A stretch of 64,000 nt of DNA, taken from IMG/VR virus record IMGVR_UViG_3300025010_000048, positions 1-64,000 of that record; one strand, 5' to 3'. The position numbers and the translations under genes are program-made. This document shows positions 7,571 through 30,460 of the stretch, in pieces (position 1 is the stretch's first letter; each line of letters starts with the position of its first letter). The stretch is from a virus. The notes below the pieces were generated by a model, which was not told the DNA's origin, did not search any database, and worked only from the letters and a program-made list of their open reading frames with translations.

Positions 7571-8560
7571 TTAAAACAACTCCACATCAATATTAATCGA
7601 GGCGTCTTGTCCTGTTAGGGTATCAATCAAGACAATCATGCCCTCCGCACTGTTAACATCAATTTCTAAGACCTGATTTAACGCTTGACCAGCGGTACCA
7701 GACATAATCAACACAGTTTGAGCCTGTCCAGCGTACCAATCGTTATTACCATTTTGCAAGAACGGTACAATAACAAGGGTAGGTAAAGTCCTGTTATCAG
7801 TTAACGACATTTTTGTATGGATATAGGCTTTAGTTTTACCTGTACAATCCAAAGCAGTTATTGCGGCGGGGATGTAGGCGTTGTTATATGCAAAATTGAC
7901 TGAAGTTGATGCCTGACCTGTTCCAACAACTTGAACATTTACAACACCTGCACTGCCCCCTTCGCCGACAGTCCCCACCGCTGTAATAGCACATCCTGTA
8001 GCACGTTGCCCCTCAGTTATTCGGGCAACCAACAAAGGTGCGGTTGGTGTAGTTCCGACAAAAACCTCATAGTATGTTGCACCAGTTGCCTGGGGAATGG
8101 TTATGTCGATAGATTTATTGACGGTTGGCGTAACAGTTACTAAAGCACTAACACCAGCAGAACCATAAATATTCCCAGGTGCTACTCCAATACCGTGAGA
8201 GACAGCAGTCAAGGAACCTGCTGTTGCTGGTTGGTCTGCTGCGGTTATTGTTACAGTTGCAGCTTTGTCTGCTGCGGTTATCGCTGCCCTGTGTGCTACT
8301 GGTGCAGTTCTACTACCGGTTACTTTCACACTAGCCGGGTTAGTATTGGTAAACTTTTCGTCACCGTCAGTATCTACGGGAATAAATTTTCCAATAATAG
8401 CCGTGCCTGCAGCTAATTTAGCAGTTATTGAACCATCGGAGTTAAGTACCATTCCGATAACTTTATTATCTCCATCAACTCCGGCAATGGTAATAGGGTT
8501 TTGTTTTGCCGCACTCTCACCTACTGGATTTTTTCCTTCTACGATAGAAATTTTTTCCAC
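7571..8560 (-). CDS. virion structural protein (A/T/G/V-rich beta protein)
   Basis: Composition; first gene after the major capsid gene. Confidence 0.55.
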   Translation of the reverse strand: MEKISIVEGKNPVGESAAKQNPITIAGVDGDNKVIGMVLNSDGSITAKLAAGTAIIGKFIPVDTDGDEKFTNTNPASVKVTGSRTAPVAHRAAITAADKAATVTITAADQPATAGSLTAVSHGIGVAPGNIYGSAGVSALVTVTPTVNKSIDITIPQATGATYYEVFVGTTPTAPLLVARITEGQRATGCAITAVGTVGEGGSAGVVNVQVVGTGQASTSVNFAYNNAYIPAAITALDCTGKTKAYIHTKMSLTDNRTLPTLVIVPFLQNGNNDWYAGQAQTVLIMSGTAGQALNQVLEIDVNSAEGMIVLIDTLTGQDASINIDVELF

Positions 8561-8615: not shown

Positions 8616-9977
8616 CTAGCTAGGATTACAGCCATAGATAAAGCTGAAATCATCCCAACCATAAGAGAAACGTGCAATTGTCGCATACTTAGCAATTTCA
8701 GTGTCGAAGTCCTCAGTTGCCTTAAATCCAGGTTGCCTTCTCCAATACCAATTTAAGAATTGCTTCATTCTCTCGCTATCACACATGCCATATGTTAACT
8801 GTATGTTTCCATGCAGAGCAGACTATATCATCCCTTTCGGGGACGGCGCTTATGGACATTATTGTTTCCTCAGTCCTAGTCGTTGAACCTTCACCCGCCC
8901 TCGTCTCTATTGACTACATCGGGTGCTTGGCTGCTGATTTCCCATTGTTTCATCCACTAACTTTTCAAGCCATCACATTCACCGTTACCAGTCGTGTTGT
9001 GGCATAGTGGTTTTAGGGGGTTCCAGCAATTCACCGTCTTTGCAATTATATCTGTGAACATTTTTTCATAATCTTTTTCATGTCCATTGACCTTACTTCT
9101 ATGACAGTCATCGCAAAGCGAAATTAAGTTATTTTTGTCAAATATTTTAGATGGATCTTCTTTTACTGTTATTATATGAAAAAGATTGTCAACGGACTAA
9201 TTAGATTACTAATTGGTATCACATATATAATGGGTCCTAGTGTTTGAACCAAGCGTTAGCGTCTGTCAACCAAGGCCATTCAACTACATTGAACACGCCT
9301 TTCCAGACGTTTACGCCGTGGTCGGTTGTCCCAGGCTTTTCCTCAGTATCGGCAATAACCCTTGCAGGTTCAAATAATTCAGTCGGCACGATCAGAGTAT
9401 CCGGCATAACCAAGAATGGATTACCCTTATCGTCCTCCCAACGACGCATATTGTTTCTAACGGTAGTCACGTTAGCGGCAGTCAGCGCATATGTGCCGAA
9501 GTTTGAAGTTACGGCAGAACTTCCAGGTGCTTTCGGGTGCGATGCAGAACAAAGAGCAACCCCATCTGGACCGGCATAAGATGCGTTAAAAGCGTTATTA
9601 AACGGTATAGCAGCATGATACTGAATAGTTCTATATTCAACCATACGGAGATTACGGACACGCTTTTTAATCTCGCCGTATTGTTCGTCCTCAACTAACT
9701 CGCGCTCAATCTGTGTACCTTTAGAATATTTACGGTGAATATAGTTAGAAGTGAAACCTTTCCTAAAGTCCTCATAAGAAACTTTATTCCCTGTTGCTCC
9801 CCATTCTTCCATTAACCCTAAGTCACCGATGCCCTGATTAGTTTCCTGCGCTTTTGTGGAGTTTTCCACGTTATACATCAGACCAAGGAAGTCCTTTTCT
9901 TTCTTACCGGCCAAGTCAAATATCTTCCTTAGACCAGGTTCAAGTTGCTCTGCCCAATTGTCAGAAATTAACGGCAT
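8616..9977 (-). CDS. major capsid protein (Mu gpT-like/HK97 fold), spliced: exon 1 9977-9247, exon 2 8787-8616
   Basis: 731+172 nt = 903 nt, 300 aa; the join reads ...DANAWF-MCDSERMK...RFSYGWDDFSFIYGCNPS*. Confidence 0.9.
8788..9246 (-). ncRNA. group I intron (459 nt) in the major capsid gene
   Basis: P AAUUGCUGGAA, Q AAUCAGCAGCC, R GUUCAACGACUA, S GAUAUAGUC; P1 GGUUC/GGACC with U.G at the 5' splice site; terminal G. Confidence 0.93.
9040..9178 (-). pseudogene. remnant C-terminal half of an HNH homing endonuclease inside the intron
   Basis: HIITVKEDPSKIFDKNNLISLCDDCH without start codon or N-terminal half. Confidence 0.75.
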
Positions 9978-23615: not shown

Positions 23616-23804
23616 ATGGCAGTAGGTCCAAACACAACGCAGATAACTTTTTACGTCAGCAAAGACTTAAAAGAGCGAGTCAAGCGGGCAGTCGAAAAAT
23701 TAAATAATTCCGAATTGGGTAAAGTTTCCATAGGTACGATCGGCACAATAGCCCTGGAACAATACCTCGCAAGCCTTGAAAACACTACAAAAACTCAGGG
23801 ATAA
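23616..23804 (+). CDS. ribbon-helix-helix regulator
   Basis: TQITFYVSKDLKERV strand-helix pattern. Confidence 0.6.
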   Translation: MAVGPNTTQITFYVSKDLKERVKRAVEKLNNSELGKVSIGTIGTIALEQYLASLENTTKTQG

Positions 23805-23834
23805 AAATTCCCTGATAATTTTTTAAATAAAGTG

Positions 23835-23866
23835 TTGACACTGTGTTTATACTGTGATAATATAAT
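23835..23866 (+). promoter_or_regulatory. sigmaA-type early promoter
   Basis: TTGACA with a TAATAT/TATAAT -10 region; ACTGTG direct repeat in the spacer. Confidence 0.65.
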
Positions 23867-23905
23867 AATCAAGAACAGCGAGACACAAACGAAGGGGGAA
23901 ACGAA

Positions 23906-26900
23906 ATGACCAATAAAGAATTAAAACAGCAGGCATTAGACCTAAAACTGCAAATGAGTCGCCGCCGGGTGGCATGTGCTAACGGTAACGACATAATAAA
24001 GTTAATGCAATGTCACCAAGCAGGAGACTACGCACCAATGCAAGAAACCAAACTATATAATAAATACTCCGGCGAATACTGCGAATACTTGGAAATATTA
24101 AACAAACAACCTGCCTGACGGGCTGTAGACAGCGAAAACGGGGAAACCCGTTAGCAGGATAAACTAAATACGAGGGGGATAAAAAATGATAAAAAGAATT
24201 TTTAACGGCGAAGGTTACACGATTACATTAGTAACTGACCTGGGTAATACGGAAATTCCAGGAAGAAGTATAACTGAAATAGAAGTACCGGAAGGCGCAC
24301 AATTTAACTCAGATAACTTCTATATACATGAGGACGGGTTGTGGTACGCTAAAACAGAAGATTGCTTCACCGGCGCAGATATGGAAATCTACTCCGAATA
24401 GTCGAAACCGGGGCAACCTGGTCAGCAGGAATGGCTACCTGCTCTGAGGATGACAGCCAACCAACAAGCTACCAGGCGAGGCGTTCCCTGGATGCAAGAC
24501 AGTATCACCAAGCAGCACAGCGCACCGACAGCAGCAAACTAGGCGCAACGTCCAAGTACAGGTCTTTGACAACTACACAAGTAGGCGGTTTAGGTTTTAC
24601 CTGAGGGCGCGACTTTGAGGTAAAACTTAAAAGGGGGAATTAGAATGATGTTATTGTGGGTAAATGAAAGAGGTAAAGGCGAAGATGGAGCAGCAGGTTA
24701 TAAGGTAGACAGTATTGAAGATGCAGTAAAGAAATTTATCAAGATGTTTCCTTACGACAACATAGTTGGTTATGTTGCAGATGATAAAAGTCATGACAAA
24801 AGAACAATCTTTGTAAGTAAAAATAAGTTTAAGAGGATGGTCAGAAAAGAGTATGGCGGGGAATTTTACTGTGACATAGTTTTATAATCTAACCTCACGG
24901 TTAGATTTTACCTCTGCATCCTGCCGGGCGTGGAGGTAAAATCTAAAAGGGAGGTAATGCTATGTATAAAAATTTATATCTGGAAGTATCAGAAAAGACA
25001 AGAGGAATCGGCTATCACTACATCGTAACTGCAGGAGCAACAGCCAACACAGCATTTAAAACAGAGCAAGGTTATAAAAATTTCCTTGAGCGTACAGGTC
25101 TTACGCCGGAATTCCAGCAAACAGTCAATAGTCGTGAATATGGCAAAGTTGACTGCTATAAACTACATGGGAAGTATAATGAAAGATATTTCAAAAGCAT
25201 GGAAGAAATTCCGCAGGATGCAAAACAATATGTCGGACTGTCTAACGGTTCTTATGTTGACTGTTATTATGCCGACGTTGACGAGGTTAGAACCATGTTT
25301 TTACCTAACCCAAACTATAAAGAAGTTTACAAGCCAAAGGATTACCGCACTTACTCGGTTTTAAATTAGTAAGGGTTAAGCCCTTGTCTAGCTTAAAACT
25401 CCCCGGTAGCTGTAGCGAGCAGTAAAACCGGGGAGCAGGTAAAAATATATTCACCAATATTATAATAAATTATAGGGGGTAACACAATGAGCGCATATGT
25501 AGTAGAAAAGAAAACCATTGACCGTATTGTAACATTTGCCGAAACTAAGGGCGCAGAGCATTTTTGGAGTAGGTACCCGGCAATCCATGAAGTATTTGCA
25601 GGTGATTGTAATAAATTAGGTCAAAAACTGCTAGTTATGAATAATAAGGCGGTTGATGCCAGATACAACGAAAACAACCCAATCGAATTATATAACTATA
25701 GCCATACACCAGCAAGTAAAATACAGGTTTATAAGTCCATGCAGTGTTTTTTATATCAATGTACGGAGGGAGATATACCAAAATCCAAACTATATAAGGA
25801 GTTAGAAGAATTAATTGGTGATTTAGCGGCAGACATTGTCTATAATCTGCCGGAATACGGAAAAGCACAATGGGGTTAGAAATACAGGGGTTAGGGGTTA
25901 ACCATAAACCCCAGTTTTACCTGAGTTATCCGGCAGGATGGCTGAGTTAAGACTAAGTGAGGGGGGTTATTTTAATGAAAATCATAATTTGTAAAGGCAC
26001 GGCAAATATACCGGCAAGGTTTTGGTGCTGGATAGTTTGCGAAGAAGAATTTACTAAGGACATAAAAAATCAAGGATTTGTAAAATCAGAATGTACTAAG
26101 TATTTATCCAGAGAGCAATTAAATTTCTTGAATGACTAGAAGGTTAAAGGTTCGCGGTAATCCATAAACCGCAGTTTTACCAAAGCGTCACAAGAGGGCT
26201 TTTTTGTAAAATTAAAATAAGGGGGATTCATTATGATTAAATTAACAGTAAAGAAATTAAACGATTTTACCAATGTTTGTCCAGTTATTGCACGTATTGA
26301 GGTAACAGAAACTAACCAGGAAATCCCGACAACTAACATTTTCAGGCATGACAGAGAAAGTAATAATTTCATGAAAGTTGATTTATCCGGGGACAATGAC
26401 CAATATCATTATTCCTCTTATGCAGTTGAAGAAGGATTTATGTCACCCGAAGGAGCCAATGAATTCATTGAAAAAACTCTTGAAGAAATCAGGGAAGAAG
26501 TAAATAGACATAGAGGTTGTCAATGGGACGAAGAATCCGAATATATAGTGAAAATATAGTCTTTCGTTATCTCCTGCAGTGTCAGGGGATGCCGAAGGAT
26601 TGTAAGAAGAAGAAGGAGGGCAACACTATGACAGCAGCATCCGCAAACCGCATTTTAAGGGCCATACGCAGGCAAGAAACGGCGAGAGGTGCAAACGTAC
26701 CTGAACTACAGAAATACCGTCTTAAAATGTACTACCCCGAAATAATATGCGCCAGCACGACTATCCCTGCCGGGTGCAGCAAGGATACAGTCTGGGCAAC
26801 TTCGCCGCTGGATGCCTTAAAATTCGCCGTGTCTCATTGGAAGATGGCAGAATGGGTGGAGGTGATAGTATGAAAATCAGACTTATCGGACCGAGAATAA

Positions 26901-27939: not shown

Positions 27940-29329
27940 GTCAACTACTCCCACCTACGCTTCGCTTAGAGGTGTGAGCTTGTAACTACCCGGAAGTGCA
28001 AACGAGATAATCTCTCCTTCCTTAGAATGGTGTTACATTAGGGCAGGTTGACATCTACCCACTTATAAAGGTTATACCCCTATAAGTACTTCAACGATGT
28101 ACTCTATTCCTTTTCGTTGAAGATTCATTGCTCCTATACGGTCATCATTTGATTTGTATCCACAGTTACGACAGCAAAAGATGTGAGCTTTCTTATTGCG
28201 ATTACTTCTCTCTGTATGTCCACACTTGGGGCAAGTTTGAGAAGTGTACTTAGGATTAACAGCTATTACTTTTGAATTATTTAGTAATACCTTATATTCT
28301 AACATTTGTCGTAGCTGATAAAATGACCAGGAGACTGTCTCGTATCTATCTTTAACTCTAACACGTTCTGTAGCATTACGAATACCGGCAAGGTCTTCTA
28401 TTGCAAAAAGAGTATTAGCCCCATATTGATTAACGAGTGCCTTTGATACTTGATGGTTTACATCATGCATCCAACGGTTTTCTCGTTGACCAATTCTCTT
28501 CAATCTTCTGCGAGAAGAAGCTGTACCTTTTTGTTGTAGTTGTTTACGCAAGTATTTGTAATAAGAACGTTTGGCTTTAATTTTTCTACCATTAAAGAAT
28601 ATTGACTTACCTTTTGAATCATAGGTTACTGCAATAAAGTTAATACCTAAATCAACGCCAACAATACTATTGATATCATAATCTGATACCATATCAATCT
28701 CTTTAGACATTGGTATGTGTAAGAAGAACTTACCGTATTTATGCACTAACTTTGCTGTACCAAAAGTCCATGAGTTGTCAAAGTATCTTTCCATACCTTT
28801 AATATCAAATGGTACTTTAATGCGTCCATCTAATGTATTAATAGAGAATATGCCTTTCGTAAGTAGATAATCTCTATTCCATACTAAATCATATTCTGGT
28901 TTTTTAAACTGTATTTTAGTCCAATCGTGCTTATTGCTTTTAAGAGTCTTGTATCTTGCTATTACAGTTTTCATAACCGACTGGGACATTTGAGAACGCA
29001 AAGAGAAGTTGCTACGCAAATCATTGTAGGCTATTTTTTGTAACTTTGATTGAGATAACTCTTTTGTATTAAAGATTATATCAGACACAAAGTTACATCC
29101 TTTACGATAGGCATTAAGAGTTCCCTGGAGTAATATGATTTGTGCTGATGTTGGATTGATTTTGATTTTAGCAGTAACAGTTAATTGCATAGTATACACC
29201 AACTTTCACTAACTATAGAAAGTATATCATATTAGTGAAAACATGTGCAACAAGAATATTAAAGAAGAAAGGAGGGAAGGCGCATTCCTCCCCGACTTTA
29301 GAAGATCGGGGTATCCTGCGCCGACCTAG
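27940..29329 (-). mobile_element. IS200/IS605-family, TnpB-only (IS1341-type) element
   Basis: Left-end hairpin 29279-29322; right end finishing GGGAGTAGTTGAC; TTCAT abuts the left end; removal restores GGAGGTACGCC-ATG. Confidence 0.85.
28072..29202 (-). CDS. tnpB: TnpB RNA-guided nuclease
   Basis: RuvC GVDLG, IEDL, DRIGAMNL; zinc finger CPKC...CRNC; catalytic residues present. Confidence 0.95.
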   Translation of the reverse strand: MVYTMQLTVTAKIKINPTSAQIILLQGTLNAYRKGCNFVSDIIFNTKELSQSKLQKIAYNDLRSNFSLRSQMSQSVMKTVIARYKTLKSNKHDWTKIQFKKPEYDLVWNRDYLLTKGIFSINTLDGRIKVPFDIKGMERYFDNSWTFGTAKLVHKYGKFFLHIPMSKEIDMVSDYDINSIVGVDLGINFIAVTYDSKGKSIFFNGRKIKAKRSYYKYLRKQLQQKGTASSRRRLKRIGQRENRWMHDVNHQVSKALVNQYGANTLFAIEDLAGIRNATERVRVKDRYETVSWSFYQLRQMLEYKVLLNNSKVIAVNPKYTSQTCPKCGHTERSNRNKKAHIFCCRNCGYKSNDDRIGAMNLQRKGIEYIVEVLIGV

Positions 29330-30460
29330 ATGAAGAAACAAAAAACCAACATGTTAGGCGAAGCACTGGAGGGCATAAAAACAGCATGGAGGCACCGCAA
29401 AGGCTACGAAATACCTGCCGCAATACTAGACACCCTAGACGCTCTTTACCCCCTCGATAAACCCAGACCATTACCGATCCGTAAAGGAATTCAGTGCACA
29501 GAAACCGGCTGGCACATGATATTTACACTTAGACCAGGCACATCATTTAACACCCTAAAAAATCAGCAGGAATATTTTGAGGATGCTACCGGGCTAAATG
29601 TGGAAATGAGCAAAAAAGCAAACTTTCTACACATCAACATAAACACTAACGAGATACCGAAAAAGCTACCGTACAGCTGGAATTATAGCGGCAATATAGA
29701 CCTACCAATACCTGTCGGACTTAGTAAGCAAGGATTGGAAGTGCTACCGCTTGAAGAATCTCCGCATTTACTTATTGCCGGTGTTCCTGGGTACGGAAAA
29801 TCCAACTTTTTACATGTCCTTATTACTTCCCTGCTACCAGTAGCAAGAATCAGCATTATAGACTTAAAGCGGTTGGAGTTTGCCTACTTAAAAGATTATG
29901 CGGCACTAGCTAGGACGGAGGAAGAATCTCTGTTATTAATGCAGTCAATAGAAAAGGGCATGGAACAACGTATCAGAACACTAGAGAGGGCAAAAGTAGT
30001 CAAAATTCAAGACTACAACAAGAGGGCGAAGGAACCATTGCCTTTTATCGTTGTTGTGATTGATGAATTAGCGGAAATTAGCTGTACTAAAACAATTAGA
30101 CTTATCGACAGAATAACCAGACTTGCCAGGGCGGTTGGAATTTCAGTAGTTGCGGCAACACAAAGACCGTCAACGAAGGTTCTCCCGGGAGATACCCGGG
30201 CAATGTTTCAAGCGCGACTATGCTTCCAAGTTGCCGATGAACTCAATAGTCGTATGGTGCTAGGTGAAACCTGTTCCCTTGCCGCATATCTACCAGGTAT
30301 AAAAGGCAGGGCAATTTATAAATTCGGCATGGATACCCAGGAAGTCCAGACTATGCACCTTCCGGTCAGTCAGGCCAAAAAATTGTTAAAGGGGGTGAGT
30401 ATGGATGCTTTTACCGAGTGGACCAATATCACACCGAGCGCGCGGCTATTACCGCGATAA
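29330..30460 (+). CDS. FtsK/SpoIIIE-family ATPase
   Basis: PHLLIAGVPGYGKS, IIDLK, VVIDELAE, RLARAVGI, ATQRP. Confidence 0.92.
   Translation: MKKQKTNMLGEALEGIKTAWRHRKGYEIPAAILDTLDALYPLDKPRPLPIRKGIQCTETGWHMIFTLRPGTSFNTLKNQQEYFEDATGLNVEMSKKANFLHININTNEIPKKLPYSWNYSGNIDLPIPVGLSKQGLEVLPLEESPHLLIAGVPGYGKSNFLHVLITSLLPVARISIIDLKRLEFAYLKDYAALARTEEESLLLMQSIEKGMEQRIRTLERAKVVKIQDYNKRAKEPLPFIVVVIDELAEISCTKTIRLIDRITRLARAVGISVVAATQRPSTKVLPGDTRAMFQARLCFQVADELNSRMVLGETCSLAAYLPGIKGRAIYKFGMDTQEVQTMHLPVSQAKKLLKGVSMDAFTEWTNITPSARLLPR

Follow-up and report, generated by a model that had tools for sequence, protein, structure and literature searches.

We analysed a 64,000-nt stretch of DNA from a tailed groundwater phage (the window: bases 1-64000 of the 72,330-bp IMG/VR record IMGVR_UViG_3300025010_000048, rated complete by CheckV) and describe here two members of the hammerhead lineage that flank one small plus-strand gene, the second of a probable early operon. 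A type I hammerhead-family motif (24110..24158) lies across the stop codon of gene 1 (23906..24118, 70 aa), and a type II pseudoknotted hammerhead (24400..24462) begins within the stop codon of gene 2 (24186..24401, 71 aa). We favour, at a probability of roughly 0.55, the reading that the two motifs cut the polycistronic transcript on either side of gene 2; the most likely product of such ribozyme cutting would be a discrete message of 270 nt.

Two hammerhead motifs at stop codons

The upstream motif has the three helices of a type I hammerhead, with stem I open. Stem I (24110-14 with 24154-58) has five pairs and leads into the core CUGACGG (24115-21), in which the UGA at positions U4-G5-A6 is the TGA stop of gene 1 (24116-24118). 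Stem II (24122-25 with 24130-33) is closed by a UAGA loop, and the GAAA behind it (24134-37) supplies G12-A13-A14 and also A15.1, the latter in the A24137-U24152 pair of stem III (24137-42 with 24147-52, loop GAAA). Position 17 is A24153, as the requirement for H at this site demands, and cleavage is predicted directly after it. The core departs from C3-U4-G5-A6-N7-G8-A9 at position 9, where G24121 replaces A9. The minimum-energy fold is exactly the hammerhead shape (z = -4.07), and none of 200 shuffles was as good.

The downstream motif, which matches Rfam family RF02276 just below its gathering score, is likewise built of three helices, here with stem II open. Its first stem (stem II, 24401-03 with 24452-54) starts at G24401, which is also the final base of gene 2's TAG stop (24399-24401), so that stop codon and stem overlap. 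The conserved GAAA (24404-07) runs into stem III (24407-12 with 24417-22, loop GCAA), whose A24407-U24422 pair is A15.1-U16.1; position 17 is C24423, an H and not a G, and cleavage is predicted after it. Stem I (24424-29 with 24438-43) is followed by the core CUGAGGA (24444-50), which satisfies the core consensus, and by an extra U (24451) between A9 and stem II that is also present in seven of the nine distinct relatives. A 5-bp pseudoknot joins loop I to the tail behind stem II (24432-36 with 24455-59). An earlier note on this DNA had placed a type I hammerhead with the gene 1 stop inside its CUGA, and a pseudoknotted type II hammerhead at the gene 2 TAG, with cuts predicted after 24153 and 24423; the sequence and the open reading frames (ORFs) bear out both placements, and the anatomy derived here agrees with both cut positions.

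These are the only two such sites in the genome: a descriptor written for the three hammerhead topologies and run over both strands of all 72,330 bp returned them and nothing else. Chance as their origin was ruled out by 100 dinucleotide shuffles, which gave 0.02 type I, 0.11 type II and 0.04 type III matches per genome when counted with a relaxed core (A or G at position 9). Covariance models found no further copy of either motif in the window. The loose type I core pattern occurs at no fewer than 118 viral loci (at least 118), and a hammerhead fold was seen in 0 of 118 among the matches listed; the core pattern is thus common and the fold is not. An exact 25-mer from the 3' half of the type I motif was found, among viral contigs, in the contig L004 only (L numbers denote the related contigs).

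Covariation supports both folds. A type I covariance model built from the five closest sequences recovers two divergent copies, at 41.6 and 31.3 bits, and across the resulting seven sequences 96.1% of cells are paired, against a shuffled mean of 75.5% and 28-50% in slid controls. Nine of the 15 pairs have changed on both sides; on four of five measures no shuffle in 500 reaches the observed value, and on the fifth, further pair types, 47 of 500 do. The window's own copy adds to this, as three inner pairs of its stem II differ on both sides from every other copy and still pair perfectly, which indicates that the pairing has been kept in the window's own lineage; its stems I and III and the leader behind them are identical to those of L004. 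For type II, nine distinct sequences (eight besides the window) have 98.2% of cells paired (slid controls, 25-60%), and 6 of 19 pairs have changed on both sides, one of them, in L007, within the pseudoknot, all of whose cells pair in the nine sequences. No type II measure is reached by more than 2 of 500 shuffles, and three are reached by none.

A bracketed slot with changing cargo

Related contigs, viral and metagenomic, were found through the 71-aa protein, the conserved type II piece and a 19-nt leader ahead of gene 2 (24161..24179, +), a conserved leader and ribosome-binding module that is present in a single copy in the window; 1.3 kb of the region, run by blastn against a phage collection, matched nothing. 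The relatives share one layout, which runs from a promoter through gene 1, a self-cleaver that begins at or a few bases from the gene 1 stop, the leader with its ribosome-binding site, and gene 2, to a type II hammerhead at the gene 2 stop. The upstream self-cleaver is either a type I hammerhead, in seven distinct versions (the window, L004 (= L136, L137), L139 (= L141), L134, L140, L133 and L008 (= L138)), or a pistol ribozyme, in three (L002 at 60.6 bits, L005 (= L142) at 50.5 and L007 (= L009, L010, L012, L135) at 46.5, the cut-off being 34.5).

That two unrelated self-cleavers, pistol and type I hammerhead, occur at one homologous slot suggests that cleavage is the function under selection. 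Pistol ribozymes cut close to their own 3' end, as type I hammerheads do. The text of PMC4604425 likewise puts the pistol cut site in the 3' substrate strand. In related contigs the 19-mer leader is preceded by a type I hammerhead, a pistol ribozyme or a promoter, and in L132 no ribozyme lies upstream of it. The downstream boundary can change class too, since L140 has a pistol (966-1033, 63.3 bits), not a type II hammerhead, downstream of the gene behind its type I hammerhead.

In all nine loci that show both boundaries, the gene ends at or against the type II motif, with an overlapping TAG in seven and an abutting TAA in two, and the bracket is kept around five unrelated gene 2 families. In L002 and L007 the bracketed slot holds homologues of the window's gene 2 (54-61% identity), and cargo and upstream ribozyme class re-assort: the window's gene family is found with either hammerhead or pistol, as is the family of L005 and L134. 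Genes 1 and 3 also vary between loci. Whole-record searches of three relatives found a single type II copy in each and a single pistol in two of them. The self-processing that the earlier note proposed thus gains comparative evidence, a self-cleaver being kept on both sides while the gene and the upstream class change; cleavage itself is something that we infer.

The modules are also widespread in the communities from which such contigs come. The contigs of four metagenome runs show increases of 5- to 15-fold in summed depth that coincide exactly with 24121-24178, 24411-24468 and 24585-24642. These segments correspond to the 3' half of the type I motif with the leader, the type II motif and a hairpin before gene 3, and contigs end or run into other sequence there. 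From the rise in summed depth it follows that the three non-coding modules are common to many other genomes of those communities. This pattern fits modular exchange at the DNA level; it does not exclude a role of the RNA, and such a role could stand without it.

Predicted processing and competing explanations

Genes 1, 2 and 3 (the last at 24645-24887, +) are probably transcribed together, since a promoter-like site lies ahead of them and no terminator-like site was found between that site and 25235. The promoter-like sequence, which is the probable start of the operon, has the sigma-70-like form TTGACA-17 nt-TAATAT with a TG before the second hexamer (23835..23863, +), directly downstream of a terminator-like hairpin (23795-23815); it is a match to consensus only, and promoter-like sites are no commoner in the region than in shuffles. 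Gene 2 is termed early on its position only, as the second gene behind this site at the head of the arm that holds the replication genes.

If both motifs cut, then gene 2 would be released as an RNA of 270 nt (24154..24423, +) predicted from the two cut sites and made up of a 32-nt leader, the gene and a 22-nt trailer. Type I hammerheads cut close to their 3' end and type II hammerheads close to their 5' end. This message would therefore begin with a 5'-OH and a short standard leader and, with the second cut after 24423, would end 22 nt past the stop codon. Its 3' terminus would be the 6-bp stem III hairpin, capped by GCAA and bearing a 2',3'-cyclic phosphate; the gene 1 fragment would also finish in tetraloop hairpins, and the ribozyme bodies would be left mostly on the neighbouring fragments. 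Neither cut would create a message without a stop codon, as both stops (24116-18 and 24399-401) lie upstream of the cuts. While a ribosome terminated at one of these stops, it would sit over the 5' portion of that ribozyme, so translation and folding would have to alternate. The likely effect of such processing would be to make the stability and translation of gene 2 independent of its neighbours, and the stabilisation of the piece through its end chemistry suggested in the earlier note is plausible.

Several observations weigh against the reading that both motifs cut. A search for RNA sequencing runs that contain this DNA found none. We class the upstream motif as a variant-core homologue of type I hammerheads and not as a confirmed ribozyme, because core position 9 is G. 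The earlier note had already remarked on this G, and the comparison with relatives sharpens the point: the window alone among the seven distinct type I versions has it, the other six having A, so the ribozyme may be slow or dead. The change is also uncompensated, since the pairing partner G12 is unchanged. With a stem I of five pairs and a tertiary contact of at most 3 bp, activity at cellular magnesium could be very low; the sole candidate contact, seen by eye only, pairs UAG of loop II with CUA at 24164-66 (a GGU-ACC pairing of loop II with the tail in the L133/L008 group is likewise a candidate by eye only). The Rfam scan that had been proposed as a check, made over 23800-24700 (901 nt), matched the type II motif (36.5 bits, E = 1.4e-5), though 0.5 bit below the gathering score of 37, and gave no match to the type I motif at E <= 10. 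The type II motif also went unreported in whole-window Rfam scans and in an RF02276 search of its own genome, and its fold energy alone is unremarkable (z = -0.83). Both covariation alignments, finally, were fitted to models derived from those very sequences, a procedure that favours the structure.

Relatives with a canonical core (L133, L134, L139 and L140) are likewise unmatched in Rfam, L134 alone receiving a 16.1-bit HH9 hit (E = 6.4), so the silence of Rfam on the type I motif probably reflects its minimal architecture and tells nothing of G9; the type II motifs of seven relatives score from 35.7 to 44.8 bits, four of them above 37. Apart from two weak matches at chance level, Rfam found no other RNA family in 23800-24700 at E <= 10. 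Nor is G9 an assembly error, as a contig from another study's run (X5), covering 23860-24163, carries the same G24121 without any difference; a second contig, from a possible source sample, likewise shows it without difference. Changes of A9 are said to lower the cleavage rate substantially, as Ruffner et al. reportedly found in 1990. A9 lies within the invariant core by which hammerheads are defined in the texts of PMC3088659 and PMC7151607, and neither a full-text search nor the text of the pairwise-mutagenesis paper PMC9901934 yielded a published value for an A9-to-G change in the hammerhead core. Natural core variation has precedents: the text of PMC7151607 describes a phage A6C variant that prefers Mn2+, and among the relatives we found U10.1-U11.1 (L004 and L139) and U15.1-A16.1 (L008), natural variants that are active, though slower, according to the main text of PMC3088659. 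Taken by itself, the type II copy is very probably active. For the G9 type I copy we see an even chance of cutting at a useful rate, and we expect that, if it cuts, it would be slow at best.

It is possible, if on the doubtful side, that the type II motif alone works and that the upstream motif is the relic of a recently disabled type I hammerhead, in which case genes 1 and 2 would stay on one RNA cut once, behind gene 2. The G found in one of seven family members, at a position of the invariant core, fits this, as does a short stem I that makes no clear tertiary contact, and the main text of PMC3088659 describes hammerhead-like RNAs with disruptive core changes as inactive. Against it, all three helices are intact and stem II carries three compensated pairs specific to its lineage; G9 recurs in an independent study's contig, so it is real sequence, and natural core variants once deemed lethal do cut, slowly, in the account of PMC3088659. 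These points do not amount to proof of activity. We think it improbable that the ribozyme, leader and hairpin modules act mainly as DNA homology for swaps of small early genes among co-occurring phages, with RNA cleavage secondary or incidental. The same flanks do surround five unrelated gene families, the upstream ribozyme type re-assorts with the cargo, and the 5- to 15-fold rises in depth and the contig breaks and joins fall exactly at the modules. DNA linkers, on the other hand, would need neither covariation nor conserved catalytic cores, nor the replacement of one ribozyme class by another, and recombination and RNA roles are not mutually exclusive. The two could be combined in a plug-and-play cassette comprising a 5' self-cleaver (type I or pistol), the standard leader with its ribosome-binding site, any small gene and a type II hammerhead, in which the ribozymes would insulate the cargo message, their conserved DNA would serve as homology for cargo exchange among co-occurring phages and G9 would be a tolerated natural variant, slow perhaps by design; in this full form we consider the idea rather unlikely.

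The earlier note had also raised circularisation of the released piece, for which we find no support. RtcB-type ligases join 5'-OH and cyclic-phosphate ends, and these are the ends to be expected from two self-cleavers, so a host enzyme of this type could in principle turn the 270-nt RNA into a circular, translatable mRNA. No helix joins the ends in the predicted fold, however, where the initial 20 nt stay single-stranded and the 3' terminus lies within its own hairpin. The two ribozymes do not rebuild a joint ribozyme fold, as happens in viroid-like circles, and the main text of PMC3088659 reports that circular or spliced products were undetected from clustered phage hammerheads. We regard a circle as very improbable.

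Genome setting and known systems

The genome is divided into two arms. A minus-strand arm reaching to ~23.3 kb carries the genes for the large terminase, portal and head, which supply the phage context, and a plus-strand arm from ~23.6 kb begins with many small genes without known function and continues with an FtsK-like ATPase, a DnaD-like replication protein and a methyltransferase-primase. Neither Pfam nor PHROGs assigns genes 1 to 3 to a family. The type II hammerhead is followed by a non-coding spacer (24463..24588, +), and then by a 14-bp hairpin (24589..24631, +) directly before the ribosome-binding site of gene 3; the fold of the whole interval 24455-24645 has z = -0.78. The hairpin is present in five relatives (L004, L005, L134, L136 and L139), where it is kept with a C-G to U-A exchange, and it is multi-copy in metagenome contigs. 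A related hairpin (24892-24955) precedes gene 4 and pairs with its Shine-Dalgarno bases, and the two may be sites of nuclease action or translation control.

The window's spacer is unlike its counterpart in six relatives (L002 at ~1790-1890, L004 at ~1255-1350, L005, L134, L136 and L139), in which the type II hammerhead is followed immediately by a conserved structured non-coding RNA of ~95 nt. This RNA, which has no match in Rfam, is closed by a CCCC/GGGG helix, and its inner hairpins vary in sequence while their pairing is kept. In L002, the type II motif itself (1716-1784) has a stem I that joins the 5' strand of one variant to the 3' strand of another, with two mismatches; this copy looks recombinant and may be impaired.

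Elsewhere in the window, a group I intron (8799-9132, minus strand; 61.8 bits, Rfam cut-off 50) lies between ORFs 7571-8560 and 9237-9977. The latter, just upstream of the intron on the minus strand, matches major head protein families, so a capsid gene may be interrupted by the intron. ORF 28072-29202 (minus strand, 376 aa), in the early arm, combines OrfB_IS605 and Cas12f1-like TNB domains and is a TnpB-type protein; the FtsK/SpoIIIE-like ATPase (29330-30460) adjoins it. The record starts with a near-perfect 58-nt palindrome (1-58), which attracts a spurious microRNA match on both strands.

The arrangement around gene 2 recalls several known systems. In phage T7, RNase III cuts the early polycistronic mRNA between cistrons and the pieces keep a 3' hairpin. 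The processing proposed here would likewise cut an early transcript between cistrons and leave a 3' hairpin on each piece, but the cutter would be the RNA itself and the ends would be 5'-OH and 2',3'-cyclic phosphate. For the gene 2 message the effect would be akin to that of engineered ribozyme insulators. In T4-type phages, Arbiol et al. (2010) are said to have described promoter-early stem-loop (PeSL) cassettes that mediate modular gene shuffling; there, too, small early genes vary between short regulatory modules that are conserved, whereas the modules here include catalytic RNAs and recombination is suggested by contig patterns only.

The closest parallel is with the clustered hammerheads of prophages (Perreault et al., 2011; PMC3088659), which, in the main text of that study, flank short gene blocks or single genes, the latter of changing identity, cut both in vitro and in Escherichia coli, occur also as pseudoknotted type II forms and as natural variants of the core, and are proposed to process transcripts into single-gene mRNAs. 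Shared with those clusters are self-cleavers in the same orientation around one small phage gene whose identity is not constant, a type II form with a pseudoknot between loop I and the 3' tail, and the U10.1-U11.1 and U15.1-A16.1 variants, found here in relatives. The present locus is unlike them in pairing a minimal type I motif with a type II, and in that its stop codons fall within the ribozymes or abut them; a G at position 9 goes unmentioned in the main-text sections of PMC3088659, figures and supplements apart. An association of pistol, twister and hammerhead ribozymes with shared gene neighbourhoods in phages has also been described (Weinberg et al., 2015, as cited in PMC4604425), and the exact self-cleaving motif is described as unimportant in the text of a review (PMC6765202). 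In agreement with that association, different classes occupy equivalent places here, pistol and type I interchanging before the same leader; the difference is that we see it in one syntenic slot, which brackets one gene per genome in a group of related phages from groundwater, and not as a statistical association.

The biological role of the numerous self-cleaving ribozymes of phages is described as still open (in the texts of PMC6155905 and PMC6765202), and this locus offers a small, clean comparative set with which to approach it, with a canonical type I, a variant type I and a pistol set against five cargo genes. The natural variants that occur side by side (G9, U10.1-U11.1 and U15.1-A16.1) could bear on whether phages tune the speed of cleavage. 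The flanking of a gene by ribozymes is not new in itself, having been published for phages in 2011 (PMC3088659); what is of interest locally is the G9 core variant, the orthologous swap of pistol and type I, and the constant leader before a variable cargo.

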